From contig JAKAPK010000001.1 in NCBI GenBank assembly GCA_021807125.1, positions 182,354-246,353 on the forward strand: 64,000 bases of DNA, read 5' to 3'. The notes below the pieces were generated by a model, which did not search any database, was not told the DNA's origin, and saw nothing but the letters and a program-made list of their open reading frames with translations. Of the stretch, positions 4,950 to 63,904 are shown in pieces; the stretch's first letter is position 1, and each line of letters opens with the position of its first letter. The position numbers and the translations under genes are program-made. The DNA is from Nanobdellota archaeon (GTDB taxonomy: Archaea > Nanobdellota > Nanobdellia > Parvarchaeales > Parvarchaeaceae).

Positions 4950-4950
4950 C

Positions 4951-32304: not shown

Positions 32305-32360
32305 GTTTCGTATAGTAAATTTATAATTATATAATCTAAATTTTAGTTCTTAATCCTAAA

Positions 32361-41366: not shown

Positions 41367-42890
41367 CTAATCTTTGAATAGTCCTTTGTAGATTTTGCCA
41401 AGACCAGCAGGTGAAAGATTAAATATCACCGTCTTTATGACGGTCATCTCCTCTAGACTATAGCCAACGCCTTCTTTGCCTTGGCCAGAATTTTTTACAC
41501 CGCCGAATGGAAAGTACGCAGTGCCATGAGAAGGAGCAGCGTTAAGTGTGACGTTGCCTACTTGAAGACTCTTCATTATTTTCCATGCCGAATAGAAATT
41601 CTGAGTAAACACACACGAATCCAAGCCGTACTGTGATTTATTTGCTATAGATATTGCCTCTTCCTCGCTACTGCATGTTATGACCGTTATTACGGGCCCG
41701 AACGTTTCCTCTTCAGCTATTCGTGAATCAAGTGGAACATCAGTCAACAGGGTGGGTTCATAATATGCCCTATCGAACTTACCGCCAGCAACAAGCTTTG
41801 CACCATGCTTTAAAGCATCCTTTATAAGACCATCAATCCTTATCGCTGACTTTTCGTTTATTACAGGTCCCATACTTACTTTATTGTCATCCGATGGATT
41901 GCCCAAAGTGTAATCTTTTAGATGGGCCACCAACTTCTTTTCTAATGCGTCCTTCGCCTTTTTTACGACAAGTATACGACTTATTGCGTCGCAGCGCTGG
42001 CCTGACAATTCAAGTGAGCCTTTTACACACTCCTTTGCCGCAAGTTCTATATCAGCATCCTCCAATACGATTGCAGTGCCCTTTCCCCCCAGCTCCAAGT
42101 GCAGTTTCTTCAGGCCTGCAGTTTGCGATATTTCCTTACCTACAGAAGTGCTTCCCGTAAAACTTATCATGTTTATGTCATCATTTCTTATGAGATACTT
42201 GCCAGCAGTCTCTCCATCGCAAGTGACTACCTGCAGCGTACCGGATGGGACACCGCATTTTCTGAATATTTCTGCGCACATAAGGAAAGCCACTGGATCT
42301 GCACTTGGCGGTTTTAGAACCACCGAATTTCCAGCCAATAACGCAGGTACTATCTTTGCCACGCTTGTATACACGGGGTAATTAAACGGAGATACGCCCA
42401 ATACGACGCCTATCGGTTCTCTTATTACCAATGCCATCTTTTGCGATGTATCGCTCGACCAGTCTCCTGGCAAATATTCACCATACACCTTTTTTGAATC
42501 TTCCATACTTAGTCGCATTCTTTCCAATGCAGCGTTTATTTCTCCTCTTGCGCTATTTATAGACTTACCGGATTCATTTACAAGTATATTAACCAATTCA
42601 TCAACATGCTTTCCAAGTTCAAGTCTTATAGAATTTATTAGCTCTAATCTATCTATCGCCGCCATATCCCTTATCTTCGATTGATTTGCCTTTGCAGATG
42701 ACACTGCCTTTTTCAGTTCTTCTTCGTTTGCAGACGAGATCTCAGCTATCTTTTTGCCGTCTAAGGGTGAGATCAAGTCACAGCCATTCTTTGTGTCAAT
42801 CCATTTTCCGTCCACCAAAACTTTAAACTTTGGTACTTCAGCGTCATTATAAATTTCAGAGAAATACTTAGAAAGTGAGATTTTTGCCAT
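41367..42890 (-). CDS. aldehyde dehydrogenase family protein (GapN-like, non-phosphorylating)
   Basis: 'FTGSTSVGK', 'LELGGKG', 'GQRCDAISR' (catalytic Cys) and 'EETFGPV'. Confidence 0.88.
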   Translation of the reverse strand: MAKISLSKYFSEIYNDAEVPKFKVLVDGKWIDTKNGCDLISPLDGKKIAEISSANEEELKKAVSSAKANQSKIRDMAAIDRLELINSIRLELGKHVDELVNILVNESGKSINSARGEINAALERMRLSMEDSKKVYGEYLPGDWSSDTSQKMALVIREPIGVVLGVSPFNYPVYTSVAKIVPALLAGNSVVLKPPSADPVAFLMCAEIFRKCGVPSGTLQVVTCDGETAGKYLIRNDDINMISFTGSTSVGKEISQTAGLKKLHLELGGKGTAIVLEDADIELAAKECVKGSLELSGQRCDAISRILVVKKAKDALEKKLVAHLKDYTLGNPSDDNKVSMGPVINEKSAIRIDGLIKDALKHGAKLVAGGKFDRAYYEPTLLTDVPLDSRIAEEETFGPVITVITCSSEEEAISIANKSQYGLDSCVFTQNFYSAWKIMKSLQVGNVTLNAAPSHGTAYFPFGGVKNSGQGKEGVGYSLEEMTVIKTVIFNLSPAGLGKIYKGLFKD

Positions 42891-43796: not shown

Positions 43797-44537
43797 CTAA
43801 GCCCACACGGCTTTTTTCGCGCCTTTTTCATCCCCATTTATAATGGCATCCAGCTCTTCGTTCATTAGTTCGAGAGAGCTGTAATCGTTTCTTACACACT
43901 TGTGAATTTCGTAATACATAGCTTCAAACCAGGGGTCTATGAGTTTCACCTGTAAATCTACAGACGCAATCATTACGTTTGGAGGCCATAAGTCTCCGTG
44001 ATAAACTCTCGCGCTTTTTAGCGCGTAAACAGCACAATTAAGTTCCTGCCGTATTTTAAGCAGGCCATCGACATTTATTTTATTTTTTTTGTTTTCGCCG
44101 GATTTGGCGTCATAATATTCAAAATACACGGTGCCGTCACTGGATATTTTCCCTCTCAGAATGTCGCATAATCTATATCCATCTATAAACTCCATGATAT
44201 AACCATATAACCCTTGCGCAGTTTTCGTCAACGCATACACTTTCGGCGAAGCTTCAGGTATTAACTGATTTACATCATAAGCCCTTATGGCTTCCCTTTC
44301 CAAATGACCTGACAGGATATTCCCGCTTTCGCCGCTTCTTTTCCAAAATAGTCCATAAGATTGAAGTTCAGCGTCAGATAGCCTTTCTAATCCGGACACT
44401 ATGCCTGCGTTCAATAATGGCAGGCCGGGTTTGACCAGACTTATATTTCGGACTATGTTTTCTGGCGTTGCGCTTGATAAAAGTTCTGCAAGAGGACCAC
44501 CAATCCCTTTTTCCGATAAAAGTCTTTCTAGTCTCAT
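43797..44537 (-). CDS. protein-kinase-like fold protein (Bud32/RIO/Kdo-like)
   Basis: Catalytic-loop-like 'YHGDLWPPNVMI' followed by 'VKLIDPWF'. Confidence 0.5.
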   Translation of the reverse strand: MRLERLLSEKGIGGPLAELLSSATPENIVRNISLVKPGLPLLNAGIVSGLERLSDAELQSYGLFWKRSGESGNILSGHLEREAIRAYDVNQLIPEASPKVYALTKTAQGLYGYIMEFIDGYRLCDILRGKISSDGTVYFEYYDAKSGENKKNKINVDGLLKIRQELNCAVYALKSARVYHGDLWPPNVMIASVDLQVKLIDPWFEAMYYEIHKCVRNDYSSLELMNEELDAIINGDEKGAKKAVWA

Positions 44538-44664
44538 AATGTTTTTTATTAGATGTTTTTGACTATTAATAGGTTTAAGCGATGTTTTACGTTAAAATTA
44601 CTCATAGCCGTTAAGCGCATGCTGGCAGCCAATGCTATTTAAGCCACAGAACTAATAGTTTAAG

Positions 44665-45591
44665 ATGGCATTTCAATTTTTTAACATAATTTTTGATGGT
44701 CTGCTGTCAGGTTTGCTGTTATCTTTCTTATTAGGCCTTCTGCACGGCATAACTCCCGATGAACACACCTGGCCCATAACGTTTTCTTATGCTATAGGGA
44801 GCTATTCCACAAAAAAAGGCGCTGAAGTTGGTCTTATATTCTCGTCAGGTTTTACTCTCCAGCGTGCGATAATGTCCGAAATTTTTTATCTTATATTTAA
44901 CGATGCGCTTGGAGGAATAAGCAACATAGTGGAATCTGCAGCTTTTTTCGCTTTAGTCTATATACTTGTCAGTTTTTTCATGGCGATTGCGGGTTATTAC
45001 ATAAAATACGGCAGATGGGTTCCGCACTTAAACTTTGACAGGTTCATAGGTAAGGGATTAAATAATCGTTTTAAACACGAATCAGAGGATTTTTACGCTA
45101 AAAATGTGTCCCCGTGGATGGCTTTAGTCCACGGACTGATAGCTGGGTTCGGGATGGGAGCGTTTGCACTTATAACTTTTACAGTTATCGCACCAAACAT
45201 GCCAAATGCATATTTGGGCTTTATGCCCGGATTATTCTACGGTCTAGGAACGATGGCAATGCAGATAATTTTCGGTGCGACGTTTGGCGCCTCTATGCTC
45301 AAGATAAAGAAACTTACGAGCAGAGGTCTAGAATTTCTTGCACATTTTATGTCGTCTTACGTGCTCTTGTACGGTGGTATAGTATTCATGCTGGCCGGTA
45401 TATCCAGCTTTGTCTTTCCTGTGCTACTGAACGCAGGCGTCTCTACGGGTATACCGGTATATAATCTTAATTCTTTCAATCTTGGCTTCGTATTAGTCAT
45501 TATAACGGTTGGAATAATAGGGTTAGCAGCCTATCTGAAAGGTATAAAGATTGCAAAATCCATAAAAAACGGGAAACGCGCGCCTTTTTAG
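44665..45591 (+). CDS. polytopic membrane protein (possible metal-ion transporter)
   Basis: 308 aa and ~8 TM segments. An 'HGITPDEHTWP' motif sits in TM1. Confidence 0.45.
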   Translation: MAFQFFNIIFDGLLSGLLLSFLLGLLHGITPDEHTWPITFSYAIGSYSTKKGAEVGLIFSSGFTLQRAIMSEIFYLIFNDALGGISNIVESAAFFALVYILVSFFMAIAGYYIKYGRWVPHLNFDRFIGKGLNNRFKHESEDFYAKNVSPWMALVHGLIAGFGMGAFALITFTVIAPNMPNAYLGFMPGLFYGLGTMAMQIIFGATFGASMLKIKKLTSRGLEFLAHFMSSYVLLYGGIVFMLAGISSFVFPVLLNAGVSTGIPVYNLNSFNLGFVLVIITVGIIGLAAYLKGIKIAKSIKNGKRAPF

Positions 45592-45677
45592 ACAAAGACT
45601 GCGAACAATAAATGTTCACTTACATAAAGATAAAGTGAAAAATTAAACCGTCTTCTGGCGATGGAAAAATTGTTAAT

Positions 45678-46730
45678 ATGGTAGATGATGACGAGCTTAT
45701 TATTGAGGCTTTTGCAACAAAGGGAATAGAATTCGTTGCGGAAAGGGAAATAAGACGGGCATTTCCGGAAGTCAACATAGAACATAAGTTGGACAAGCGC
45801 ATAATTTTTCGTTTAAAAGCTGCAAGCTTGAAAGAGCTTTTTAAACTTAGAACAGTGGACGACGTCCAATTGATGCTAAAAGAATTCAGCGACGTAAAAG
45901 GACTTGATGAGCAGTTTATACTGGACAACGCGCCTTTATATGAAATTGAACGTGCGGTTAAAACAATTGAAAAACTGCGCCCATTAAACAAAACTTTCTC
46001 TTTAACATTGTCAAAATATAAGAACTCCGAAATTGATCTGAATTCTCTGCAACAAAAATTTAGTGAAAAGATCGCTGATTCATTTAAGATTGCGTATACC
46101 GAGCGCGACCATAAAAATTTCGACCTGCGCGTGCATATAGAAGCCTCGAACCTATTTTTTTCCTGCAGGATTCCACGCAATAGCTTGTATTCAAGACAGT
46201 ATAAACTCTGCAAAAGAAAAGGCTCTCTGAAATCAACGATAGCAGCTTCACTTTGCATGCTGTTAGATTCACAAAAAGGAAAAAGACTGGTGGATAATTT
46301 TTGTGGGAGCGGTACCATACTTTGTGAAGCCGCATTGCAGGGCCTAGAACCGTTTGGTGGGGATATAGATGAAGACAGTGTAGAATGCGCCCAGACCAAC
46401 ATGCGCAGTTTGTCGAAAGAATGCGTAAAAAACATAAAGCATCTTGACGCAATGGCGACAAGGTGGCCGAATAATTATTTTGATTATGCGGTTTCAAATT
46501 ATCCTTGGGGCAAACAGATACAATTAAAAGGTATGGTCAAAATGTATGAAAATTCCATTCGCGAGTATGCGAGGATAATTAAAAAAGACGGAAAGATGGT
46601 GTTGCTCGGGGTTAATCCAGATCTAATCATAAAAGACGTAAAAAAGTATTTTCCCGGTCATTCTATAGAAAAATTTAAGATAGGCTTTTTAGGACAAACC
46701 CCTTGGATAGTGTACGTCCATCCAAAATAA
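45678..46730 (+). CDS. THUMP-domain RNA (guanine-N2) methyltransferase (Trm14/TrmN-like)
   Basis: N-terminal THUMP-like region. SAM motif 'DNFCGSGTILCEAA' and catalytic 'SNYPWG' ((D/N)PP(Y/W)-type). Confidence 0.78.
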   Translation: MVDDDELIIEAFATKGIEFVAEREIRRAFPEVNIEHKLDKRIIFRLKAASLKELFKLRTVDDVQLMLKEFSDVKGLDEQFILDNAPLYEIERAVKTIEKLRPLNKTFSLTLSKYKNSEIDLNSLQQKFSEKIADSFKIAYTERDHKNFDLRVHIEASNLFFSCRIPRNSLYSRQYKLCKRKGSLKSTIAASLCMLLDSQKGKRLVDNFCGSGTILCEAALQGLEPFGGDIDEDSVECAQTNMRSLSKECVKNIKHLDAMATRWPNNYFDYAVSNYPWGKQIQLKGMVKMYENSIREYARIIKKDGKMVLLGVNPDLIIKDVKKYFPGHSIEKFKIGFLGQTPWIVYVHPK

Positions 46731-46787
46731 GTAATATTTAATTATAAATTATACTTTCAGTAATAACAACACATTTTGGCGGTTTTT

Positions 46788-47090
46788 TCAGTTTTGAAGT
46801 CTTCTTATGTATGCATATGTGCTTCTTTTGAATCCGAGCTTATTATACAGTTTTATTGCCGATTTGTTTTTATCATTTGTTAGTATTATCACCGATTCAG
46901 CGCCAAGCGTTCTTAATCTCTCAATCATTTCTTTTATTAACGCAGATGCAATACCTAATTTTCTGAATGGTGGAGCAACATAAAGCTCTTCAATAGTTCC
47001 ATACGTAAAATCTGCGTAAGTTATAAGAAGACCTAATGCAAAACCCGTTAGCTCCTTATTTTCTTCAGAGATTAAAATCAGGTCTTTCAT
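46788..47090 (-). CDS. GNAT-family N-acetyltransferase (short)
   Basis: 'EELYVAPPFRKLGIASALIKEMIERLRTLGAESVIL' is GNAT motif A (R/Q-x-x-G-x-A). Confidence 0.7.
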   Translation of the reverse strand: MKDLILISEENKELTGFALGLLITYADFTYGTIEELYVAPPFRKLGIASALIKEMIERLRTLGAESVIILTNDKNKSAIKLYNKLGFKRSTYAYIRRLQN

Positions 47091-47116
47091 TTATTAGCGT
47101 TGGCATTTCATATCAG

Positions 47117-47131
47117 TAAAAGGTATAAATA
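47117..47131 (+). promoter_or_regulatory. BRE/TATA-like box
   Basis: 'aaaaggtataaatat' lies ~25-35 nt upstream of the ATG at 47156. Confidence 0.35.
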
Positions 47132-47155
47132 TCTGTAATCTTCTTCATATGATTC

Positions 47156-47509
47156 ATGGTACCATCACCTGATAAACATACTTTGGAAGGCATAATAGAA
47201 AAAGTACTTTTTAAAACTCATGAAAAATTGGGCTCTACAACGACCATAAAATTCGAAAGCCAAGTAGGGGTTGCATACATCAAGGATATTCGCGGCACCC
47301 TCCCTTTTGTTGTCGGCAATAAAGTAAGGGTTTCTTATACATATGAAAGAGACGGTGATGTGTTCCTACCAATAATAGATACTATAGATATGTACAGTAA
47401 AGATGGCGTACACCAGTTTAAAATCGATGAAATAGCTCCTTCCACTCCCCTGATTGCAGACATAGGGCGTCTCTACTCTAAACCCCTACAATTACCGCGT
47501 TCAGAGTAG
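47156..47509 (+). CDS. hypothetical protein
   Basis: 117-aa ORF; no motif. Confidence 0.45.
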   Translation: MVPSPDKHTLEGIIEKVLFKTHEKLGSTTTIKFESQVGVAYIKDIRGTLPFVVGNKVRVSYTYERDGDVFLPIIDTIDMYSKDGVHQFKIDEIAPSTPLIADIGRLYSKPLQLPRSE

Positions 47510-47554
47510 AACGCTGTAAATAGCTTAAAGATGCAACTACAATAGACATTCGCT

Positions 47555-48380
47555 ATGGAAAGTACACACAATACAAAATTCGAACTTTGGATGCCAAAGG
47601 ACAACCGTGCCTACCTTTTTGATTCTTTTTTTGAAGCGTCTTTCCCGCAAAAACTACTTGCCGATTATAAATCACATTGTAAAAGAGGATGTGAACTTGG
47701 TTTGGAAGAGATAATCAAAGGAATAAGTGCTAATCAGCCGGCAGAGAAACTCATACCAGCTATAAACGATAGAATAGAGAAGATTGACCATAGAGATGCG
47801 TCTATTTTTGCGGTTTCTTTTAAACCGAAAACTTATGGTGATGAACCTACGACTATAAATTGTTTAGGCCATGCCACCGTTTTGGTCTGTTCGCTGGAAA
47901 AAACTTGGGCGATATGACATATTAGCGGATATAAAAGTGAAAACCTCGTCGGATCACGTTTGGCTGTTTTATGATGGCGAGAGAAAATTTGATATTAATG
48001 GTTCTGGAGAATCTATATTAAGACCTTTGGAATCTCTACTTATTGGAAATTTAAACGCATGTGCGCAGAATTTGGCATCTATGGAAACGACTGGAGATGA
48101 TGAAGCACAAAAGAAAGACATAATTAAAGAAGCCCAAAAGAAGGCTGAAGAATCTCTCTCTATCGACCCAAACGAACCGTACTCTCTTGATGTAGCTGGA
48201 AAATTGTTCTGGCTTCAAGCAAAAGCAGAAAAAAATTTGGTATTTTACAATGCTGGCGTAGAATGCTTAGAGAAAGAATTCGAATCTAAAGGTCTGACAT
48301 CATCGATAAGGTTATCACTTTTAGCAGAGCTTATACAAATACGAAGCGAACGTGATAGTCTGGCAAATCAATATATTTAG
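47555..48380 (+). pseudogene. hypothetical gene split into two overlapping frames (47555-47917 and 47871-48380)
   Basis: The two ORFs overlap by 47 nt in different frames around an A6 run (47898-47903). This fits a single ~275-aa gene carrying a frameshift. Confidence 0.35.
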
Positions 48381-48592
48381 ATATACCGATTTCTTCTCTT
48401 TAACTTTAAAGTGTAAATTTTTAGTAAAAACAACAATCTTAATTCTAAGATAGCAAAGTAATTAGTTGACTAACAACGATACTAAAGCTTATAGACATTA
48501 CAAATTTATTTTATACTCTATTTTATGTGTATAATTACTGCCTTATCATATAAAGGGTTACAAAACGTCAGCGCACTAATGTAAAGTCTGGA

Positions 48593-49267
48593 TTATACCA
48601 GGGGTGCCTTTAAAACACCAAGCAAAACCCACAATGACGCAGCGACAGCTTCCGAAATAAGAAATGGCACCAAAACGGCTTCGATGCCGGCTATGACACC
48701 GTGAGACTTTCCGCGAAAGTCTATCATTGTAATAGGTATAAAGACTATAACGGAATAAACTATCCATACCACAGGAAGTTCTATAAAAATGGAAAAAGGA
48801 TTGTGAAGAAAAGCGCCTGATACAAATATCTCGTACAGTACGCCTGTAAAGGCAGAATACAGGACTGCTTCTGGTGGTGAGAATGCAAATTTTCTGCTCA
48901 CCCATAATTTCCACATGACCAGCCAAGTTAACCATGTTGCATCAATAAAAACAAGATCCACCCACAGAACTGGTTGTGCAAGCGTTCCACCCAAAATATA
49001 CACTAAGTATTCCTCTACCGACGATATAATTATTACTATGATAGAGAACCCGACTATGTTGTCTATTAATGAACCTTTAATTATGTCACGTATTCGTTCT
49101 CTAAAAAGCCATGAGGCACCGCCGAATACAACGCACCAAACAATCGCAAAATAAACAGAACTCCAGGAGCCTATAGAAGCGAGCACGGCAATAGATAAAA
49201 CGAACCAAGCAAAAATAAATCTCCAGTACCACGCAACCGCTGAGAATTTTACCAATATTTTAAACAT
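48593..49267 (-). CDS. hypothetical polytopic membrane protein
   Basis: 224 aa with ~7 hydrophobic segments. Confidence 0.5.
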   Translation of the reverse strand: MFKILVKFSAVAWYWRFIFAWFVLSIAVLASIGSWSSVYFAIVWCVVFGGASWLFRERIRDIIKGSLIDNIVGFSIIVIIISSVEEYLVYILGGTLAQPVLWVDLVFIDATWLTWLVMWKLWVSRKFAFSPPEAVLYSAFTGVLYEIFVSGAFLHNPFSIFIELPVVWIVYSVIVFIPITMIDFRGKSHGVIAGIEAVLVPFLISEAVAASLWVLLGVLKAPLV

Positions 49268-49345
49268 ATAAACCGATTTGACAGCCGCATAGCGGTATGT
49301 GTTATCTTGTTGTTATATCTTATTTAGACTTAGTATAATTTATAA

Positions 49346-49523
49346 AGAACACTACTTTCAGAAGACGTTACATAAAAATTTATTTCTGCAGTGCCATAGC
49401 CAACACAAGCCCGATAATAATCACGATCATGGCTTATTTTGCGTACAAAGAAAAATTGACGAAACTACAGGTATCCGGACTGTTATTGGCCGTCATCGGT
49501 GCAGTCATCATAAACCTGCTCTG
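49346..49523 (+). pseudogene. C-terminal fragment of a DMT/EamA- or SMR-type transporter gene
   Basis: Open frame '...YFCSAIANTSPIIITIMAYFAYKEKLTKLQVSGLLLAVIGAVIINLL*' looks like the last two TM helices of an EamA/SMR protein. It is preceded by an in-frame stop at 49343 with no N-terminal part. Confidence 0.4.
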
Positions 49524-49555
49524 ATTGAAAAACAGGTTCTAGATCTGCAGCGACC

Positions 49556-50335
49556 TTATTTGAATCCTGGTTTCCTTGAAACGTAATCATACAGTTTTAA
49601 TATGTTTCTTGGCTCGGACACAAGGTATCTCCGCCAGTAAGGCATAAGCTTCAGCTTTGTTGTCCGTAATTCCGGGTGCCCGAAGAAAGGAGGATACCTT
49701 CCGGTGTTCAGCCTGACTCTAAGCTCCTCGTCCACTGCCAGTTCAAGCAGTGCGTGGCCGACATCGTTCCTAGGCAGCTTTGAGTGTAGGATCTCGTGCC
49801 ATATATAAATAACGGAATAATTCTTGAAGTCCTCGTTGTGGCCGTAAGCGATCTCGTTGTCGCCGAGATATAATCCGTTCTTCAGGGACGGGTGGGTTAT
49901 ATACACCGTGTATGTCGTATCGAACTCGAGACCTGTGATTTCAGACATGGCGTGACTGGTTAACCTGCTTTTTTTCTCCCAGGTTTCCCGGCAGAAGTTC
50001 ATGTACACCTCGGTCTGTTTTAATATCTTTTTGAATCGCTGATTTTTCTTTATGGCGTCCATGTACGACGGCAGGCCGAGGATCGCTTTGTTCAGGACCA
50101 TGCTACTAGGCCTACCGGGCCAGACGGCGGGCTTGTCCGCACCAGACAAGAGCAAATATGATTCTTTGGATTTTTCCCAAGCATAATCCTGTAATTCAAT
50201 GATGTCGTGATTGAATTTTTTTGACGAAAACCCTATTGTGGCGGGCGTGTTGTACAAAACGTACGCTAGGAGGTAGTTTTGATCTATCACAAACCTGACG
50301 TTAGGCACGCTTGCACTCTTCTGCTCGTTACCCAT
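49556..50335 (-). CDS. hypothetical protein with HExxH motif
   Basis: 'YIWHEILHSKL'. It is the last gene before the solo TIR remnant at 50378-50407. Confidence 0.5.
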   Translation of the reverse strand: MGNEQKSASVPNVRFVIDQNYLLAYVLYNTPATIGFSSKKFNHDIIELQDYAWEKSKESYLLLSGADKPAVWPGRPSSMVLNKAILGLPSYMDAIKKNQRFKKILKQTEVYMNFCRETWEKKSRLTSHAMSEITGLEFDTTYTVYITHPSLKNGLYLGDNEIAYGHNEDFKNYSVIYIWHEILHSKLPRNDVGHALLELAVDEELRVRLNTGRYPPFFGHPELRTTKLKLMPYWRRYLVSEPRNILKLYDYVSRKPGFK

Positions 50336-50377
50336 ATTAATAATATTGAAACTACAGTTTTAAACTTTGTAAAAAGT

Positions 50378-50407
50378 AGTGCCATTTCTTTGAGATAGCA
50401 TTATCCC
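50378..50407. repeat. solo copy of the casposon right TIR (remnant of an earlier insertion)
   Basis: 'agtgccatttctttgagatagcattatccc' is 25/30 identical to 60841-60870, with the terminal 17 nt identical. It is followed by the same 14-nt target copy. Confidence 0.75.
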
Positions 50408-50421
50408 CAGATAAAACTGCC
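50408..50421. repeat. target-site duplication, left copy (CAGATAAAACTGCC)
   Basis: Perfect 14-nt direct repeat of 60871-60884, immediately outside the left TIR. Confidence 0.85.
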
Positions 50422-50474
50422 GGGATAATGCTATCTCCTCAAAATGAGACTAAAAGTTGTAAAGATTACAAGCT
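50422..50474 (+). repeat. casposon left terminal inverted repeat
   Basis: 'gggataatgctatctcctcaaaatgagactaaaagttgtaaagattacaagct' against the reverse complement of 60818-60870. 27/30 terminal nt and 46/53 overall are identical (hand alignment). Confidence 0.85.
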
Positions 50475-50543
50475 AGGTTTTTTATTATTGTATTTTTGTT
50501 CAATTACGCTTAAAAACGAATAATAACATATTATAAAGTAAAT

Positions 50544-51110
50544 ATGGCAGAAAAGCAAGTTAAAAGAGTCTTAAATCGACGCGTAGACGATAGACACTTT
50601 AAAAATAATTCGTCCGGTAGTAAGAGTCGAGCTTCGCTCTTAAAGAAAGTAAATACTGGCGGGCAATTTCCGACAAAAACATCTGGCCAAGTAACAGAAT
50701 TCGAATTTTTAGCTGGGTTTTATATGCTAGCCCCTATTTTAGTGATATTACTAATTGCATTTACGCAGTTTATCGGGTTTGTAATTTTGATTATATGTTT
50801 TATCATCATCCTTATTGTTACAAAGAAAAAGTATTCCTTAATTGTATCGATTTCATTTATATTTTGCAGCGTTCTTCTTGGACTTGCTACATTGTATTCA
50901 GCGACAAATTCAAACAATTCAATTTATACAAATTTTACGATTCCACTTTACATTGCGCTTGGGGCTACATCTTTTGTCCTTTACATAGAATATGTCATAA
51001 AAGACTTGAACGAGTTTTATAAACTGAAAGGACCCATTGCAATCCTAAAATGGAACGAGTCTATCAAGGACTATTTATTTTCGAAATATTTCCGTAAAAA
51101 AGGTCGCTAG
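50544..51110 (+). CDS. casposon-borne membrane protein
   Basis: 188 aa with a basic N-terminus and 3-4 TM segments. Confidence 0.5.
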   Translation: MAEKQVKRVLNRRVDDRHFKNNSSGSKSRASLLKKVNTGGQFPTKTSGQVTEFEFLAGFYMLAPILVILLIAFTQFIGFVILIICFIIILIVTKKKYSLIVSISFIFCSVLLGLATLYSATNSNNSIYTNFTIPLYIALGATSFVLYIEYVIKDLNEFYKLKGPIAILKWNESIKDYLFSKYFRKKGR

Positions 51111-51149
51111 ATAATTAGACTACCAAAATTAACCAACGGTTTTAAGACT

Positions 51150-53747
51150 CTATTTTTTAAGTGTTTTCTTCCACCTATAAAACGTTGCTCTAGACACACC
51201 GTGCGCTATAGCCCAGTCCAACCCCTTCTCCACAACTTCCTTTTTAAGGACCTCTTTACTCCGATATGTGACTACGCTGATTGATTCAAGACCGCTCAAG
51301 TTATGTTCAATTTTGTTAGCCTCTTTTCCGATGTAGAGTATGTTATTTGCGAAGACATGCCGTCTGTCCAGTAAACCAATCTTGTCGGTATCATCGAACT
51401 TTGCCTCGGGATGTTTTATATAGTCTAAAAGCACTTCGCTTAACGGTAACCAGTATTCCGGACCGTTATAGATCTTTCCAGTCTTATAGTCTATGAAGTC
51501 TCCATAGACCGCGCTTTGCGTATCTTTCGAATACGGTGCTATCGGTTTAATGTTTTTATTGGTTCCAAAGCCTATCAGGAAGAAGTTAAACGGCTTTATT
51601 GTAGCTTCTGGATGCTTCTTGTTATACTTAGCGAACCTTTTGAGGAGACTCGGGCTAGAGACGATAAACTGGGAAACAGCGTAATAATCTTTGTACTCCT
51701 CTATAAAATTATCTAGAGTAATCTGACCATAATGAAGTTTAAGAATATCGAGCCATATCCTTTTCTGCCATTTGGTTTCCTTGTCTCCGAATGGATTCAT
51801 CAAATGGCCCAGACCGTGCAGAGAATAGTTCTCATCGTCCTCTGATTCGTCTATTACGAACTCTCCGTTCTCGATTCGATATAGAACGTATCTTTTGGCG
51901 CTTATACCGTAAAACCATACGTCGGTTTCCTCTTCTTTCAGTAGAGAGTCTACGTTAGAATACGGATTCAGAGGGTCAAAGAACGCCTTTATTTCTTTCG
52001 TATACCTCGGAGGTACGAACATGCTGTCCGTGTCGCAATAAACTATATTTTCTCCGTGCTTCTGGAGTATGCAATCTCCGATACCCAACAGTAGTTTGGA
52101 GCCGCCGGTTATCAGCGTTGCTATTATAGGGTCGAACGATTTTCCAGGCTTTTCGAATCGGTTCTTGTCGTCAAATACCTCGCTTCCGTATACCTCCAGT
52201 TCCTCGTCATAGTCTTCTGGATTCATCTCTATGAAAATCCCGTAGCTCGTGGCGTTTGCCAGAATCTTTATTGCACGTTGTACAGAATCCAGTCTTTCAT
52301 ATTCCATGCTGCCCTTTTTCTCCTTATCGCGCAATCGTTGTATTTCCTGTCGTTTCTCTATAAGCACTTTGAACAGGTTGTCTTTTGATGGGTCTATCGT
52401 AACTCCTAATACGTCCGTAGATTTCAGTGTCTTTTGCTTTCCTACTGCATCGAATCGGATGGCCTTTACGATTTTCGGTGTCTTTCCTGTGAGCAGTTTC
52501 GATAGCACTATCTCACCCAGCGTATAATATACTGGCCGTGTCGAAGTAAGGTAATTGAACCCTACTGTAAAGGTGTCTTTGTTATATCTGGCCCTTACTG
52601 ATAACAAATCGTCGTTAGGAATTATTTTCACGATTACGTTTAGCCGTTTCCACGTCTCTAGTTTCCTTAGGTCTTCGAGAGTCACGCTCTCTACAAAATG
52701 TATAATTGCGTCGGTATCTTCGCGGTATTCTATTCTTTCAGCCGTTACAAAGTCCCATAGGCCGAGTAGTATGAACATCGTCGGGTACATAGACTTGAAG
52801 TCCAATACCGACACCTTTACAGGCTCTTTCCTTACACGGCATTCGCATCGGCCGCCATAATAGGTCTGCATTACATATCCGAGTAATTCGGGAGGAAAAT
52901 TAGGATTCGTGGCGCCAAACGAGTTTATGCCTAACTTTTCGAGACAGAATTTTCCGATTGTCGCGGATGAGTAGATCTCGTTTAAAGGTATCGGCAAGGA
53001 GTACTTCTCGAACTCTTCCCTTAGCCGCGTAAATAGCTCGGCCGTAGCTAGAGTGTCGTTTATGTTGTATTCTATATATTTTCGATTGATTTTACCGTGT
53101 TCTTTGGTCTCAAGTTTATGATAAGCCTTATTGAACATCTCACACGCACGTTTTAGATTTAGGTGTTTCTTATCCGTCAAAGTAACACCTAAGGTCTTCA
53201 AATCCACAAAGAAGCCGGGCTTGTGTTCGTAGCTCGTAGACCTGAAGTTAATGAAAGCTTGACTGGAACTGTTGTGTTTTATGCGTATCGGTGGAAACTT
53301 TCGTTCATAGTGTAGCTTCAGAGCAAATCCTCCGCGCATGCCTCTCTTTGAAGGCACTGGGTTAAATGTCGAAAGCCTGGGTAAATCAAAGGGCAAATTA
53401 AACCCTATGCAAGGAATTTGTCTTTTGTATACGTAGGGATAGAATACGTCTTCTATAAACTCGTTTAAGGCGTATAGTTTGACTATGCCATTTTCTTTGC
53501 AGTAGGCCTTTAGCTCTTTAAGCTCCTTATCCGATACTTTTGTCGGATTATAGAATAACCCTATCAATTGTACAGAATTACCAGTTTGTATCACGAACGA
53601 ACCGAACTTAAGGTCTTGAGCTTGGTCTACGGTGGTTTCTGTGTCTAGGACCAGTATCGTGCTGAAGTCCGGGATAGCTGTTTTTCTTTCATAAGGCTTG
53701 CGCTTCCGTTTAGGTACCGTGTATGCTCTGACCGCGATGTCGGTCAT
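51150..53747 (-). CDS. polB: family-B DNA polymerase (protein-primed-type, casposon PolB)
   Basis: Exo I 'LVLDTETT', exo II-like 'YNINDTLAT', motif A 'VLDFKSMYPTMF', motif B 'KILANATSYGIF' and motif C 'VYCDTDSMFV'. 865 aa. Confidence 0.9.
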   Translation of the reverse strand: MTDIAVRAYTVPKRKRKPYERKTAIPDFSTILVLDTETTVDQAQDLKFGSFVIQTGNSVQLIGLFYNPTKVSDKELKELKAYCKENGIVKLYALNEFIEDVFYPYVYKRQIPCIGFNLPFDLPRLSTFNPVPSKRGMRGGFALKLHYERKFPPIRIKHNSSSQAFINFRSTSYEHKPGFFVDLKTLGVTLTDKKHLNLKRACEMFNKAYHKLETKEHGKINRKYIEYNINDTLATAELFTRLREEFEKYSLPIPLNEIYSSATIGKFCLEKLGINSFGATNPNFPPELLGYVMQTYYGGRCECRVRKEPVKVSVLDFKSMYPTMFILLGLWDFVTAERIEYREDTDAIIHFVESVTLEDLRKLETWKRLNVIVKIIPNDDLLSVRARYNKDTFTVGFNYLTSTRPVYYTLGEIVLSKLLTGKTPKIVKAIRFDAVGKQKTLKSTDVLGVTIDPSKDNLFKVLIEKRQEIQRLRDKEKKGSMEYERLDSVQRAIKILANATSYGIFIEMNPEDYDEELEVYGSEVFDDKNRFEKPGKSFDPIIATLITGGSKLLLGIGDCILQKHGENIVYCDTDSMFVPPRYTKEIKAFFDPLNPYSNVDSLLKEEETDVWFYGISAKRYVLYRIENGEFVIDESEDDENYSLHGLGHLMNPFGDKETKWQKRIWLDILKLHYGQITLDNFIEEYKDYYAVSQFIVSSPSLLKRFAKYNKKHPEATIKPFNFFLIGFGTNKNIKPIAPYSKDTQSAVYGDFIDYKTGKIYNGPEYWLPLSEVLLDYIKHPEAKFDDTDKIGLLDRRHVFANNILYIGKEANKIEHNLSGLESISVVTYRSKEVLKKEVVEKGLDWAIAHGVSRATFYRWKKTLKK

Positions 53748-54040
53748 ATTGTCTTCTTCAACTTTTCAAGCGCTCTTCGTTTTATTCTTGTCCCTACAGT
53801 ATCGAGCAATCCAGCTATTGAGATTTCTTCATAAGCGTCTTTTTCAATCTGACTTGCATTCTTACTTCTGGCTTTAGGAGAGATGCCATTCTGCTCTGTA
53901 GTTATCTTATCATGGCAGTTGTGGCAGAGCCAAACGGTTTCCGGGCTATTGTTTCTCCCGAACACGTGATGCTCTTCCTTGATAACTCTCGGGTCGTCTT
54001 CACCACAGATAGCGCAGGGCGGCTTAGTCGTATATCTCTC
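53744..54040 (-). CDS. HNH endonuclease (open frame lacks an in-frame start for its N-terminal half)
   Basis: The frame reads '...KPPCAICGEDDPRVIKEEHHVFGRNNSPETVWLCHNCHDKIT'. This gives CxxC...HH...N...CxxC-H, i.e. HNH. The first start codon (GTG at 53965) lies after the CxxC and HH. 4-nt overlap with the polB start. Confidence 0.6.
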   Translation of the reverse strand, partial: ERYTTKPPCAICGEDDPRVIKEEHHVFGRNNSPETVWLCHNCHDKITTEQNGISPKARSKNASQIEKDAYEEISIAGLLDTVGTRIKRRALEKLKKTI

Positions 54041-54518
54041 CTAACTCGTGCTCTTCACGTCGTAGTTCTATCTCCTGTATTTTGGTAGGGTCCGTTTCAA
54101 GATGATGGGTTTTGCCGTAAATATTCTTGATTCTGGTCCGTTTGTATTTTTTCAGTGCACGCCAATCACCAGAGTACAGGCCCTTCTTCACATCATTATA
54201 GTACCGGCCTATTATCGCAGCCTGCTTAGAGCCTTTAACGATTACCGTTCGTCTCCGACCGTTTTCGTATATTATCAGTTCTCTCTCCAAGGTATCGGAC
54301 TTTTTCGCACGCCACTTACGCTTGCATTTGTATAAGACGGACCCCAAATTATGTCTAACGGTGTCCGGCTTTAGACCCAACTCTCCGGATGCTCTTGTAA
54401 GCGACTTGCCCTCGCGGATTAACCTTAGCACATCGAGCGATTTTACTCTCAAAGCTCTCTCTTCTTTCGATAGCTTAAGCCAGCGTTTGATATGCCGATG
54501 TTTCCGTCGTTTCACCAT
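54024..54518 (-). CDS. casposon HTH DNA-binding protein
   Basis: Basic N-terminus, then 'GKSLTRASGELGLKPDTVRHNL', a resolvase/terminase-type HTH. 164 aa. Confidence 0.6.
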   Translation of the reverse strand: MVKRRKHRHIKRWLKLSKEERALRVKSLDVLRLIREGKSLTRASGELGLKPDTVRHNLGSVLYKCKRKWRAKKSDTLERELIIYENGRRRTVIVKGSKQAAIIGRYYNDVKKGLYSGDWRALKKYKRTRIKNIYGKTHHLETDPTKIQEIELRREEHELGEIYD

Positions 54519-54833
54519 TTACTGTTGGCCACCCCCACGTCGTCTAAAAAGGACCACCAGTATAATGGCCAGCACGGCACCACCTAATCCCAGCCAACCC
54601 CAACTAGAAGATGAATGGCGTTCGGCGATTTCTCTACTACCATCAGAGGGTCGATCCTCTGCTGGTAGCGATTCAACCACTGGTGCGGCATCGCTTACAG
54701 TAGCTGCTTGTTCTACCGGTTCGCTTTCTGGTTCCGGCAGCGCTTGGCCGCGATGAAACCTGCTTTTGTGCACGCGATAGCTTGCACCACTCTTAAACTC
54801 CTTCCCGTCAAACGGGCATATTCTTATGGACAT
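54519..54833 (-). CDS. C2H2 zinc-finger protein with C-terminal TM anchor
   Basis: 'CPFDGKEFKSGASYRVHKSRFH' (C-x2-?..H-x5-H type) and C-terminal 'WGWLGLGGAVLAIILVVLF'. The ATG at 54833 is preceded by GAGGTGA; the track ORF extends to 54902. Confidence 0.55.
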   Translation of the reverse strand: MSIRICPFDGKEFKSGASYRVHKSRFHRGQALPEPESEPVEQAATVSDAAPVVESLPAEDRPSDGSREIAERHSSSSWGWLGLGGAVLAIILVVLFRRRGGGQQ

Positions 54834-54879
54834 ATATTTCACCTCAAAAGTAAATCTACGTTTGTCAGATAATGTTATC

Positions 54880-54931
54880 GTATTACCTCCAAGAAAAATC
54901 AAGATATTTATTAGGGGTAATGTATTACCTC
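54880..54931. promoter_or_regulatory. divergent-promoter region with direct repeat GTATTACCTC x2
   Basis: gtattacctc occurs at 54880-54889 and 54922-54931, each preceded by (t)aatgt. It lies between the divergent starts at 54833 (-) and 54935 (+). A TATA-like 'gatatttatta' sits at ~54902. Confidence 0.35.
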
Positions 54932-54934
54932 TTT

Positions 54935-55942
54935 ATGACATTGACGAGAGAAGAAAAGAAAATCGTGGCATTTTTAGAAGCCAGTAAAGATGCTGGTAGG
55001 TCTTCTGAAGAAATCGCAGCGCGATTGGATTTAGCCAAGAAAAACATTCTAAAGAAAGTCAATAGATTGAAGGCCTTAAACATAGTGTCAAAATTCGGTA
55101 CTACTAGAGTAGTTCGTTATCGTCTAAGTAAGTATGACCCGGAGGAGGTTCAGAAAACAAAGATGTACCGACTTATTAAAAGTACCGAAACGCGCAGAAA
55201 GCAGGAAGACAAAAAACGGTATAAAGATAATGCAGAATTTCGTTCATATCTACTAAGCAGTCTAGATTCGTTTCTGATACAGATTTCGCACGTTTTAGAT
55301 TGTGATTTAAAGACGTTAGAAGTGACTATAGACGATGAAGAAACTTTCAAAAAACTGGTGCTGCATGCTAAGATGCGATCACTGTCAAAAAATATCTTAT
55401 TCGCGATAAATGATTATTTAAAAGAGGGGCTTAAAGAGGCGTTAACACGACCACATGCCCAGATAGAGGTATACGAACAGAAGATGATTAAAAACATCTT
55501 AGATGAAATAGATTATTGCGCGCCAAATCTAAATCATAAAGCTTGTTATGATGCAATTGAAATACATATAGATCCAAGGTATGAAGACCTTTCATTTTCA
55601 GAGGAGCTTAAAAACTTTGTGAATGGCGATGACCGAAACAGTTTATGGGATAAAGAAATAAGAGATGCGCTTAATAGCTATGGTGTTATTCTAAGCGAGT
55701 TTATCAAATATTTAGACGGTATAAAGATTGCACATAAGATAAGCAGCTCTGGCCTCGAAATACTTTTCGATGCAGATGATCTGGAACATTGGATACGAAA
55801 CTTAAGGGAGACTCTCAGTCATATTATTAAAATGGCTCTTGAGCTCAAGTATTTTTTAGACAAAATGCAAAAGGAGCAGGGACAATTCAGAAAGCGTGGA
55901 AAAGTCTTGAAATATAAAGTAGAGACGCTTACTTCTCTTTAG
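54935..55942 (+). CDS. winged-helix (MarR/ArsR-like) DNA-binding protein with long C-terminal domain
   Basis: 'LTREEKKIVAFLEASKDAGRSSEEIAARLDLAKKNILKKVNRLKALNIVSKFGTTRVVRYRL' is a wHTH. The start is taken at the internal ATG; the track ORF begins at 54872. Confidence 0.6.
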   Translation: MTLTREEKKIVAFLEASKDAGRSSEEIAARLDLAKKNILKKVNRLKALNIVSKFGTTRVVRYRLSKYDPEEVQKTKMYRLIKSTETRRKQEDKKRYKDNAEFRSYLLSSLDSFLIQISHVLDCDLKTLEVTIDDEETFKKLVLHAKMRSLSKNILFAINDYLKEGLKEALTRPHAQIEVYEQKMIKNILDEIDYCAPNLNHKACYDAIEIHIDPRYEDLSFSEELKNFVNGDDRNSLWDKEIRDALNSYGVILSEFIKYLDGIKIAHKISSSGLEILFDADDLEHWIRNLRETLSHIIKMALELKYFLDKMQKEQGQFRKRGKVLKYKVETLTSL

Positions 55943-56066
55943 GTCGGTCCCAATATGGACTATGGCATTTTGGGCAAAGTGGTGGCTTAACCCTTTTTCT
56001 AGGCGTCCACTTATGACCGCACCTATTGCATAGATACCCCTTTACTTGAATAGTTGTCTCCGGCAT
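55929..56066 (-). CDS. small zinc-ribbon protein (45 aa)
   Basis: Not in the track: MPETTIQVKGYLCNRCGHKWTPRKRVKPPLCPKCHSPYWDRPKEK, with two CxxC pairs. Convergent 14-nt overlap with the preceding gene. Confidence 0.5.
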   Translation of the reverse strand: MPETTIQVKGYLCNRCGHKWTPRKRVKPPLCPKCHSPYWDRPKEK

Positions 56067-56091
56067 GCAAACTTATTTCATTTTTAATATT

Positions 56092-56106
56092 AAAAGTTTA
56101 TATATT
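56092..56106 (+). promoter_or_regulatory. TATA-like box upstream of cas1
   Basis: 'aaaagtttatatatt' lies ~26-40 nt upstream of the ATG at 56132. Confidence 0.35.
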
Positions 56107-56131
56107 ATCTAATACTTATTAGTTAATACGT

Positions 56132-57361
56132 ATGAGACCACTATTGTTATCTGGGTTTGGTATAAACGTTATCGTTAGCGGTAGAAAGCTCGTTATCGAA
56201 AATCATCAGACTAACGAAATATCAGAGTTTTATCCTCATCAGATACCTTATGATAATGTTATTATAGATGGCTACTATGGTCTGATTTCATTTGAGGCCC
56301 TCAGATGGTTATCAAAGCACGGTATAGGAATTACGCTCCTTAATTGGGATGGTAATTTGTTATCGGTGACAACACCCAAAGAGCCGATTGCTGGAAAACT
56401 GAAAATAAAACAATACAAAACGTATCTTGATAAAGAAAAAAGATATACTATTGCGTATAAGATTATAGAACAAAAGATAGGTAAATCGTATGAATTGCTA
56501 TCTTTGTTATCAAACTTCTATAACTCTATTAATATGAAAGAAATGAAAGCTATCTTTGATAACGAATTACGTAATTTTGATAACAATTCTAAGAGAATTT
56601 CGTTATCTGATAACGAAAACATCAAAGAACGTATAAGAAACGTAATGTCATATGAAGGAAGGATAGCTGATTATTATTGGAAAACGTTATCAAAAGTCTT
56701 CAATAGGCTATATCCAGAGTTTCCTTTCAAAAGAAGAAATAATTCATTAGACTCTCATAACAGAAACGCTTCAGATTATATCAATGCGTTATTGAATTAC
56801 GGGTATGCCATACTAGAAAGCGTTATCCGAAGGGATATTAATGTTATCGGACCGGATCCCGACATCGGCTTCTTACACGAGATTGCTACCAGTAAACAAC
56901 CATTAGTCTATGATTTACAAGAATTATATAGATGGCTGATAGATTTGAGCGTTATCCAGCTTCTTGAAGACAAAAAGTTGCGTAAGTCTGACTTTATTGT
57001 TACAGAGAATTACCATTTACGTCTTAGGGAGTCGGGTATCAAGTATCTTGTAGAGAAGATTGCGTCTAATATGAATAAACTCGCATTATACAGAGGAAAA
57101 CGTTACACATTTGATACTATCTTACTGAATAACGTCCGAAATTTAGCAAAATGCATAGAAAAAGATGAGAATAACGTTAGCTTTGAGGTCCCTAAGATTG
57201 AAAGCTATCGAAATGATAAGTTTGAATTACGTAATCGGATAATGTCGATAACGCCTGAAGAGCGTAAGAAATTAGGTATCAACAAGAGTACGCTCTGGTA
57301 TCAGCAAAAAGCTATAAAAGAGAACAGAAAAATAAAGGTATACAACAAAGTTCAAAAATAA
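56132..57361 (+). CDS. cas1: Cas1 homolog with C-terminal HTH (casposase)
   Basis: N-terminal beta domain 'LLLSGFGINVIVSGRKLVIEN...VIIDGYYGLISFEALRWLSKHGIGITLLNWDG'. Catalytic-region motifs 'MSYEGRIADYYW', 'NALLNYGYAILES' and 'GFLHEIATSKQPLVYDLQELYRWLID'. C-terminal 'RKKLGINKSTLWYQQKAI' HTH. Confidence 0.88.
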   Translation: MRPLLLSGFGINVIVSGRKLVIENHQTNEISEFYPHQIPYDNVIIDGYYGLISFEALRWLSKHGIGITLLNWDGNLLSVTTPKEPIAGKLKIKQYKTYLDKEKRYTIAYKIIEQKIGKSYELLSLLSNFYNSINMKEMKAIFDNELRNFDNNSKRISLSDNENIKERIRNVMSYEGRIADYYWKTLSKVFNRLYPEFPFKRRNNSLDSHNRNASDYINALLNYGYAILESVIRRDINVIGPDPDIGFLHEIATSKQPLVYDLQELYRWLIDLSVIQLLEDKKLRKSDFIVTENYHLRLRESGIKYLVEKIASNMNKLALYRGKRYTFDTILLNNVRNLAKCIEKDENNVSFEVPKIESYRNDKFELRNRIMSITPEERKKLGINKSTLWYQQKAIKENRKIKVYNKVQK

Positions 57362-57363
57362 CT

Positions 57364-57573
57364 TTATTTATTTAGCCTAGAAGCAATTATCCATTGATTT
57401 TGTCTGCCTATCTTGAAGTATTTTACTTTCCCTTCTTGCTGTAATTTGAATAAGTGCATCTGGGCGGTATACCATGCTGTTTTAGTTGCTTTACCTACCA
57501 TCTCGGTGGTCGCAGAAAACGGTATACTTCTAAGATAGTCTAAAATTTTCCTATCAATTTCTGAGTCTTTCAT
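57364..57573 (-). CDS. small winged-helix DNA-binding protein
   Basis: 69 aa: 'RKILDYLRSIPFSATTEMVGKATKTAWYTAQMHLFKLQQEGKVKYFKIGRQNQW'. Confidence 0.55.
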   Translation of the reverse strand: MKDSEIDRKILDYLRSIPFSATTEMVGKATKTAWYTAQMHLFKLQQEGKVKYFKIGRQNQWIIASRLNK

Positions 57574-57639
57574 ACGTTATCTGTATTATACAATGTATTG
57601 TATAATCGGATTTAAATATATTTAGTTGCCTTACATAAT

Positions 57640-60030: not shown

Positions 60031-60052
60031 CTCGTCAGATAACGTTCCTTCA

Positions 60053-60781: not shown

Positions 60782-60817
60782 GGCATATACAAGACGATAC
60801 GTTACTTATATAATTTA

Positions 60818-60870
60818 AGTTTGTAATCTTTACAAGAATTAGTCTCATTTTAGTGAGATAGCATTATCCC
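60818..60870 (-). repeat. casposon right terminal inverted repeat
   Basis: The reverse complement 'gggataatgctatctcactaaaatgagactaattcttgtaaagattacaaact' pairs with 50422-50474. Confidence 0.85.
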
Positions 60871-60884
60871 CAGATAAAACTGCC
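60871..60884. repeat. target-site duplication, right copy (CAGATAAAACTGCC)
   Basis: Identical to 50408-50421. Its last 4 nt (tgcc) are the reverse complement of the tRNA-Arg(GCG) 3' end (GGCA). Confidence 0.85.
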
Positions 60885-60954
60885 CCCGGCCGGATTTGAA
60901 CCAGCGTCTTCGCCTCCGCAGGGCAATGTTCTGTCCAAGCTAGACTACGGGAGC
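60881..60954 (-). tRNA. tRNA-Arg(GCG)
   Basis: Reverse complement has acceptor gctcccg/cgggggc (one G-U) plus a, anticodon arm ttgcc-ctGCGga-ggcga, and T arm gctgg-ttcaaat-ccggc. Confidence 0.85.
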
Positions 60955-60955
60955 T

Positions 60956-61846: not shown

Positions 61847-61876
61847 TCAATTATAGGATAGTTTAGGTATAAAAAG

Positions 61877-62374: not shown

Positions 62375-62437
62375 ATTATAAACGTATGATAGATAGCTAT
62401 TTATATATACGTCTTAATATAGTCAAAATTGTAAAAT

Positions 62438-62623: not shown

Positions 62624-62628
62624 ATAGT

Positions 62629-63870: not shown

Positions 63871-63904
63871 TGTTTATAAGTTATAAGTAAATATAAGAAG
63901 AGTA

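Follow-up and report, generated by a model that had tools for sequence, protein, structure and literature searches.

What kind of event puts a long direct repeat on either side of a 10-kb insertion next to a tRNA gene, when the inserted DNA itself is bounded by inverted repeats? The question is raised by a stretch of 64,000 nucleotides, hereafter the window, from a Nanobdellota archaeon (contig JAKAPK010000001.1, positions 182,354 to 246,353), in which a casposon, a mobile element encoding a Cas1-family integrase (casposase), occupies positions 50422-60870 next to a tRNA-Arg(GCG) gene. We analysed the 60 nt across its left end (50378-50437). This stretch is very probably the head-to-tail joint of two generations of casposon insertion at the tRNA-Arg(GCG) 3' end, in which a terminal inverted repeat (TIR) of an older element is followed by one copy of a 14-nt target site duplication (TSD) and by the left TIR of the present casposon.

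Structure of the left junction

The present casposon measures 10,449 bp (50422-60870, + strand) and was delimited by its TIRs, its perfect TSD and its absence from four near-identical strains. An inverted-repeat search placed the TIRs at 50422-50474 (left, + strand) and 60818-60870 (right and tRNA-proximal, - strand), with arms of 53 nt each that are 87% complementary. The two copies of the 14-nt TSD, cagataaaactgcc, are identical and lie at 50408-50421, away from the tRNA, and at 60871-60884. The latter copy, located by sequence comparison and an ARAGORN tRNA call, covers the last 4 nt of tRNA-Arg(GCG) (60881-60954, - strand; ARAGORN), the integration target, which is still predicted as an intact tRNA.

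Comparison of the window with itself reveals an exact 31-nt direct repeat, tgagatagcattatccccagataaaactgcc, with its left copy at 50391-50421 and its right copy at 60854-60884, both on the + strand. The bases bordering the two copies are unlike (T/G before, G/C after), and the 64-kb window contains no longer exact direct repeat; in 20 mononucleotide shuffles of the window, the longest exact repeats reached 14-18 nt. The repeat is made of the 17-nt tip of the right TIR followed by the 14-nt TSD. An earlier note on this DNA had claimed this identity and this makeup, together with a divergence further in that leaves 25 of 30 nt shared with the right TIR and a perfect palindrome with 16-nt arms and a 14-nt spacer, and we reproduced all of them. 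The palindrome (50392-50437, with arms at 50392-50407 and 50422-50437) is exact and folds as single-stranded DNA at -16.7 kcal/mol (z = -8.8). It consists of two TIR tips face to face, that of the old TIR and that of the new left TIR, on either side of the TSD: the old TIR ends at 50407, the TSD occupies 50408-50421 and the new TIR begins at 50422, with a single TSD between two ends of the same orientation. The same arrangement is present in the genomes of two other species (G045:C23 and G043:C18).

The older TIR

The likeness of the remnant to a TIR extends beyond the first 30 nt and spans about 50 nt (50358-50407, - strand), which TIR comparisons and a profile match identify as the tRNA-proximal end of an older casposon-type element. 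Over these 50 nt the remnant matches the right TIR at 39 positions and the left TIR at 36, and left of the 31-nt repeat it still matches the right TIR at 22 of 33. A repeat search returned here a direct repeat of 64 nt at 83% and inverted 50-nt arms at 72%. An nhmmer search with a profile of 50 TIR tips from the genus ranks the remnant first in the genome (37 bits, E 1e-9). Past the TIR, ungapped identity to the casposon interior over the next 200 nt is 24%, which corresponds to random sequence.

The inner part of the remnant is closer to TIRs in other species than to either TIR of the adjacent casposon, since its positions 17-40 agree with a TIR at G020:C8 in 22/24 cases and with the adjacent right TIR in 15/24. 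This pattern points to a different, common TIR lineage ('...AGAAATGGCACTA...', named here the 'GGCACTA' lineage). Whether the remnant matches a different casposon lineage elsewhere in the genome was a check proposed in the earlier note, and the outcome is that it differs from its neighbour and finds its match in another species. The terminal 16-mer of the TIRs, GGGATAATGCTATCTC, is present with at most two mismatches in 27 of 33 species-level genomes of the genus; because this terminus is conserved genus-wide, the perfect tip of the remnant reflects that conservation and not a recent origin.

No partner TIR of the remnant was found upstream in the window, either by regular expression (up to 5 mismatches) or with the 50-sequence nhmmer profile, and tblastn with the casposon proteins gave no match left of 50358, that is, no Cas1 or PolB fragment. 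The candidate left-end hits were rejected as being at chance level only; one of them (42695-42708) falls within an aldehyde dehydrogenase gene. As it has no partner end, the old TIR should be inert. The earlier note had called it a solo right TIR. Its origin from an older element stands; it is however full-length and probably still joined to a few kilobases of old cargo genes, and thus probably not a bare solo TIR.

Near-identical strains with and without the casposon

Sister strains were found by looking up exact or near-exact flanking proteins in public assemblies. Four assemblies, which share 98.9-99.8% identity with the window in their flanks, carry the old TIR, one copy of the 14-nt target and the tRNA-Arg, without the casposon. 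Compared with a model of the empty site in which 50300-50421 is joined to 60885-60990, GCA_021788735.1 (L075), GCA_027370795.1 (L077) and ERZ27233565 (L080) each align without gaps at 226 of 228 positions, and SRR13170412 (L079) at 149 of 150. In GCA_027370795.1 a 40.9-kb contig is collinear with 44492-50421 and then with 60885-64000. The old TIR is unchanged in L075, L077 and L080. These assemblies thus hold the landing-site state predicted by the earlier note, which had recommended a search of related genomes or metagenomes for variants with zero, one or two elements at this tRNA and had claimed that the left flank already carried a TIR and a regenerated target of an older, related element. 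The existence of strains about 99% identical in their flanks, with and without the casposon, indicates that the element has been mobile recently.

The casposon itself is represented in the run SRR13206618, whose independent Logan contigs (presumably built with k = 31) are 100% identical to the window. One of them contains the TIR tip, the TSD and the left TIR (L081), another the right TIR and the TSD (L082) and a third the casposon interior (L076). The contigs of this run break exactly at the repeat, L078 at 60855, L081 at 50392 and L082 at 60883.

Identity of the present casposon

The element at 50422-60870 is a family-2-type casposon. It combines an internal Cas1-family integrase, an internal family B DNA polymerase (PolB), TIRs with a 14-nt TSD, insertion at a tRNA 3' end and presence/absence polymorphism. 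The casposase (56132-57361, + strand, 409 aa) was recognized by Pfam, PDB and Aciduliprofundum boonei matches: it matches the Pfam family Cas_Cas1 (E 6e-52), its closest solved structure is the Methanosarcina mazei casposase (PDB 6opm, E 1e-71, residues 1-399) and it shares 55% identity with its A. boonei counterpart. The nearest named record found with this casposase as query is a metagenome-assembled genome (MAG) labelled 'Nanoarchaeota archaeon'. The PolB (51150-53747, - strand, 865 aa) scores barely above the Pfam cut-off (PF00136, 24.1 bits vs 23) and has no match in PDB or NCBIfam, which points to a divergent polymerase whose identity rests on Pfam and on its catalytic motifs, all of which are present (Exo I LDTE34, A DFKSMYP316, B KILANATSYG494, C YCDTDS570).

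No match to tyrosine recombinases (PF00589) or serine recombinases (PF00239) was obtained in the whole 653-kb assembly, control genomes being positive in the same search, and no open reading frame (ORF) of the present casposon has an integrase-family match. What would define an integrative element, namely a recombinase gene in or near it and repeats made mostly of the tRNA 3' part, was not found at this locus. No Cas2 was seen in the window, and no repeat array stood among the families displayed in a repeat search of 30000-64000, a dedicated CRISPR search not having been run. We also considered a kinship between the gene beside the old TIR (49556-50335) and that beside the new right TIR (60053-60781), and found no homology.

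How the joint may have formed

We propose that an older casposon-type element inserted first and that its tRNA-proximal TIR (50358-50407) came to abut the 14-nt target. A 'leader' in the tRNA, the T-loop, would guide the casposase to its site, the cut being made at a constant distance from this leader, and the target on the tRNA side would for this reason have stayed usable. The 10,449-bp casposon would then have entered between the tRNA and the old TIR by two staggered strand transfers 14 nt apart, and gap filling would have doubled the 14 nt, leaving one copy by the tRNA and the other between the old TIR and the new left TIR. All lineages of the genus conserve the last 16 nt of the TIR, which would explain why the two copies of the direct repeat share 17 nt of TIR tip. 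The joint itself is a side effect of these insertions and has no function of its own. The enzymology of this scheme would be that of the A. boonei and M. mazei casposases, from which it is taken by analogy, and we infer the order of events, that is, insertion here and not excision elsewhere. The geometry of the window puts the newer of the two elements on the tRNA side, where the leader is, and in the casposon-free strains the old TIR abuts the target and the tRNA. The tandem stacking put forward in the earlier note, in which the casposon inserted into the regenerated target, is supported by the casposon-free state, by the distinct lineage of the old TIR, by the lack of an integrase and by the presence of such joints in relatives.

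Several observations weigh against this scheme. The integrated arrangement is seen only in this genome's own large contig and in one further large contig counted in the look-ups, and the breaks of the Logan contigs also fit a casposon-free chromosome accompanied by a circular casposon (right TIR-TSD-left TIR). Of the older element, which may have been a full casposon or a non-autonomous derivative, the window yielded neither a left end nor a third TSD nor any piece of Cas1 or PolB. Moreover, the strain comparison is unrooted and gives the event no direction, as insertion here and precise excision in the other strains look alike, and the empty site of the sister strains could equally be the product of precise excision. 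The casposon might then be ancestral to all these strains and the casposon-free assemblies would have arisen by its loss, the old TIR still predating the casposon. Precise in vivo excision of MetMaz-C1, a casposon from M. mazei, does leave one target copy and no footprint (PMC10359463), and the casposon-free junctions observed here are just as clean. However, all of the four or five assemblies that diverge by 0.2-1.1% from the window lack the casposon, which only this genome's lineage and the source run possess; excision in M. mazei occurs at very low frequencies (1e-5 to 1e-9 per genome; PMC10359463), and a recent gain agrees with the perfect TSD and the intact ORFs. We therefore regard ancestral presence followed by excision as unlikely.

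The breaks at the 31-nt repeat also raise the question of a mis-pairing during assembly, in which a casposon-free chromosome and an excised circle or tandem dimer would have been joined and the composite left junction would be an artefact. The SRR13206618 Logan contigs start or stop at the repeat and both pairings fit that graph, and a circular intermediate has been hypothesised for MetMaz-C1 (PMC10359463). Against this, the 316-kb contig of this genome runs through both casposon junctions. Metagenome assemblers usually end with k-mers longer than 31, for which reads across the whole repeat are needed, and this too counts against a mis-pairing. In addition, two large public contigs carry the casposon genes, and the tandem arrangement recurs in two other species, which makes an artefact very improbable. 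We give hardly any credence to an attachment (att) site of a tyrosine or serine recombinase element, for which the repeat could be mistaken, as the earlier note had warned: a 10-kb insert next to a tRNA with a direct repeat at each end does look superficially like one bounded by attL and attR, but the recombinase searches described above were negative over the assembly and among the ORFs of the element, which encodes a casposase, and the tRNA contributes only 4 of the 31 nt, while 17 nt are an inverted-repeat tip that also ends the other side of the element. Just as far-fetched is an origin of the repeat without any older element, by segmental duplication or by repair synthesis copying the right junction leftward. 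The perfect identity does span exactly the tip and the TSD, as such copying might produce; the TIR likeness nevertheless continues to the left (in the 33 nt compared with the right TIR and, more strongly, in the 24 nt compared with the G020:C8 TIR), it stops at the end of the TIR, where identity becomes random, and the casposon-free strains, which already hold the old TIR next to the tRNA, refute this explanation. The earlier note had named a longer segmental duplication and a nearby tyrosine or serine integrase as findings that would speak against its reading, and neither was encountered.

Targeting of tRNA genes in the genus

Casposon insertions were reported to overlap the tRNA by 4-7 nt (Krupovic 2014). 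The target of the A. boonei casposase consists of the TSD and 18 bp inside the tRNA (the T-loop region), downstream sequence being dispensable, and each new casposon is expected on the leader side of the previous one, with one TSD between them (PMC5137440). In the window the T-loop of tRNA-Arg(GCG), GGTTCAAATCC, ends 21 nt before the TIR. We sampled 30 tRNA-adjacent TIR tips from the genus; the distance from GGTTCAAATCC to the start of the TIR is 21 nt in 27 of them and 20 nt in the other three.

The tRNA-Arg(GCG) with the canonical T-loop GGTTCAAATCC is occupied in 4 of 7 genomes (G000, G022, G045 and G010). A fifth (G018) is probably occupied as well, the sequence past its tRNA resembling, by eye, a degenerate TIR, and the sites of G019 and G004 are empty. 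G022 and G010 have a TIR at the usual distance, and the stretch fetched from each gave no match to casposase or PolB; neither of these TIRs could be retained as an orthologue of the remnant, as only the TIR aligns and the flanks do not. A tRNA-Arg with the variant T-loop GATTCAAATTCC is occupied in none of nine genomes, in three of which a TIR sits at the neighbouring tRNA-Pro(AGG) instead. Occupancy would thus follow the T-loop sequence, which we take as a lead only, the genomes being phylogenetically related.

About 9 kb separate tRNA-Arg(GCG) from tRNA-Pro(AGG) in G012 (L054:5583-14613, G012:C7), two genes that are about 30 nt apart in sister species. We rejected this insert as a casposon, since our probes detected no TIR, Cas1 or PolB in it, and it is some other kind of insertion. 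An exact junction pattern in a genome of another family (G187) proved to be a chance match in coding sequence, without TIR or tRNA.

What the older element may have been

The 4.7 kb left of the old TIR (45678-50335) are not syntenic with relatives, in which the aldehyde dehydrogenase gene (41367-42890 here) sits 2-3 kb from the tRNA-Arg. This segment contains a DNA methyltransferase, a GNAT acetyltransferase, orphan ORFs, a frameshifted gene (47555-48380) and a 259-aa ORF (49556-50335) whose start is located 23 nt inside the old TIR. Casposons are known to carry methyltransferases and acetyltransferases (PMC4046053), and homologues of the 259-aa ORF and of the GNAT gene lie together behind a tRNA-proximal TIR at G004:C21. 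On the basis of the non-synteny and of these cargo homologues, 45678-50335 is probably the surviving right arm of the older element, an assignment that is uncertain.

Members of the 259-aa family are scattered over bacteria of the candidate phyla radiation (Microgenomates, Wolfebacteria), DPANN archaea and one Methanobacteriota MAG, at 35-52% identity, and this patchy spread suggests a mobile gene. Pfam, NCBIfam and PDB yield no annotation for this family; in one source a member is called 'transposase'. The two overlapping ORFs at 47555-48380 (120 and 169 aa) are matched by one gene of 274 aa in L077, a near-identical strain, and by a 253-aa paralogue at G000:C7:7331-8092, the split being either a real frameshift or an assembly error.

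Casposon relics and short elements in the genus

A full-length casposase was found in 3 of the 33 genomes (G000, G011:C9:11938-13113 and G016:C8:53495-54670). Fifteen further genomes contain weaker or partial Cas1 matches only, mostly C-terminal fragments, many with stop codons. Because they start at variable points and in many cases hold stop codons, these C-terminal fragments are best read as pseudogene relics; for the same reason we rejected the 55-aa ORF G000:C7:44434-44601, which matches the casposase C-terminus, as a stand-alone helix-turn-helix protein. In G000, a partnerless TIR stands at tRNA-Gln(TTG) (G000:C7:48450-48486), and 3.9 kb inside it lies a casposase C-terminal fragment (C7:44428-44586) with 72-75% identity over about 50 aa; TIR and fragment together are a truncated older casposon. 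The two other TIR-14 nt-TIR joints have the newer element next to the tRNA, at tRNA-Pro(CGG) with a perfect TSD in G045:C23 and at tRNA-Gln(TTG) with a TSD of 13/14 in G043:C18.

Short TIR-bounded elements without a casposase were also found at tRNA 3' ends, with 14-nt TSDs. One of 1,039 bp with an Asp/Glu racemase gene occupies the same tRNA-Arg(GCG) in another genome, with a perfect 14-nt TSD (L064:2046-3084, G045:C27). One of 2.28 kb with a 672-aa ORF also has a perfect TSD (L057:4141-6424, G045:C23), and one of 2.9 kb encodes a thermopsin-like protease and a PolB C-terminal fragment (L063:8593-11492, G004:C13). An element of 2,023 bp, encoding a 385-aa surface-repeat protein and neither casposase nor polymerase, occurs in two genomes (L058:2140-4162, G043:C18; L062:5695-7717, G042:C25). 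Its copies are 97.6% identical, their host flanks about 65%; both are inserted at tRNA-Gln(TTG), facing opposite ways, their TSDs agree at 13/14 and 11/14 positions, and no full-length casposase was found in either genome. The 2,023-bp element looks like a recently spread non-autonomous casposon, and the short elements in general look like natural non-autonomous casposons, of which we found no description in the searched literature.

It is possible, although we hold this idea tentatively, that the casposon ends of the genus form a general cassette system, in which full and short elements are stacked at reusable tRNA sites, exchanged between species and moved in trans. The T-loop and the 14-nt target would then serve as a docking site, with layers in the order of arrival, and since a full-length casposase is present in so few of the genomes, rare autonomous copies would mobilise the short elements in trans. 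The cargoes seen in the short elements are the Asp/Glu racemase, the thermopsin-like protease and the surface-repeat protein. If this were true, the junction studied here would be one layer boundary of a stack.

Relation to known casposons

Stacked casposons with a remnant TIR are a kind of structure already published for other archaea. A study of 2016 (PMC4779613) reported, for Methanosarcina, tandem casposons with a shared TSD between them and one partner degraded, as well as 'solo-TIRs' in 43 strains of M. mazei. In 2023, casposon re-integration at the original site was observed in vivo to produce tandem structures (PMC10359463). The tandem family-2 casposons of Methanosarcina sp. 2.H.T.1A.3/.6/.8/.15 and 2.H.A.1B.4 (Krupovic et al. 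2016, PMC4779613) resemble the present case in the shared target and the degradation of one copy, and one of their targets is a tRNA 3' end. They differ in that the older partner here is without Cas1, PolB and second TIR, that the elements reside in a DPANN archaeon whose genome is below 1 Mb, that the target is tRNA-Arg(GCG) and that the TIRs are of clearly different lineages. The solo-TIRs of M. mazei, which outnumber intact casposons in that species, are likewise single TIRs beside the target motif (PMC4779613); here, however, the site was re-used and both states are preserved in near-identical strains.

AciBoo-C1 of A. boonei (PMC5137440, PMC6614799) is similar in its casposase, its insertion at a tRNA 3' end, its leader in the T-loop region and its TSD of fixed length. 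The TSD is nevertheless 14 nt here and 15 nt in AciBoo-C1, and the genus studied here, unlike AciBoo-C1, uses many tRNA species (Arg, Gln, Pro, Lys, Val, Ser, Glu). Precise excision of MetMaz-C1 leaves the configuration found in our sister strains (PMC10359463), but the polymorphism is natural here, whereas the MetMaz-C1 events took place in the laboratory at very low frequency. By analogy only, polar and chronological insertion beside a fixed recognition element, with a duplicated repeat between units, also recalls leader-proximal spacer acquisition in CRISPR and the pile-ups of Tn7 at attTn7; unlike in CRISPR acquisition, no CRISPR array is involved here.

New in the present case are the DPANN host and the preserved strain pair with and without the casposon, and we found no paper on casposons in this DPANN group in the searched literature. 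The locus offers a clean natural pair for casposon integration, the same site with and without a 10.4-kb element and with the older TIR as a fixed landmark, and it indicates recent casposon mobility in a DPANN archaeon with such a small genome. It also fits the 'leader plus ruler' targeting of casposases and the polar stacking predicted from it, through which casposons are linked to spacer acquisition in CRISPR. Annotators may note that a direct repeat of 31 nt by a tRNA can be a TIR tip with a TSD and not an att site, and casposon TIR tips are widespread relics in these genomes.

Other TIR-like sequences near tRNA genes

Further traces of this kind were noticed in the same genome. A degenerate TIR (E 0.075) at G000:C3:146934-146975 keeps the standard spacing to tRNA-Arg(CCT). 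The window itself holds a second TIR without a partner (32356-32391, - strand), which belongs to the 'AAAAGTGTAC' lineage and again shows this spacing, here from tRNA-Arg(TCT) (32402-32476); the 14 nt beside it, aaaagattactgcc, end in the last 4 nt of this tRNA, and no partner TIR or casposon genes were found upstream of it. At 6459-6485 (- strand), a copy of the TIR tip, GGGATAATGCTAAGTC, stands 148 nt downstream of tRNA-Lys(CTT); its outer side lacks a tRNA, and it could be the far end of an almost wholly deleted element. Finally, a 21-nt exact direct repeat (4225-4245 and 4924-4944) has its second copy in the 3' half of tRNA-Ser(GGA) (4865-4950) and its first copy about 700 nt upstream, and might be the relic of another integration.

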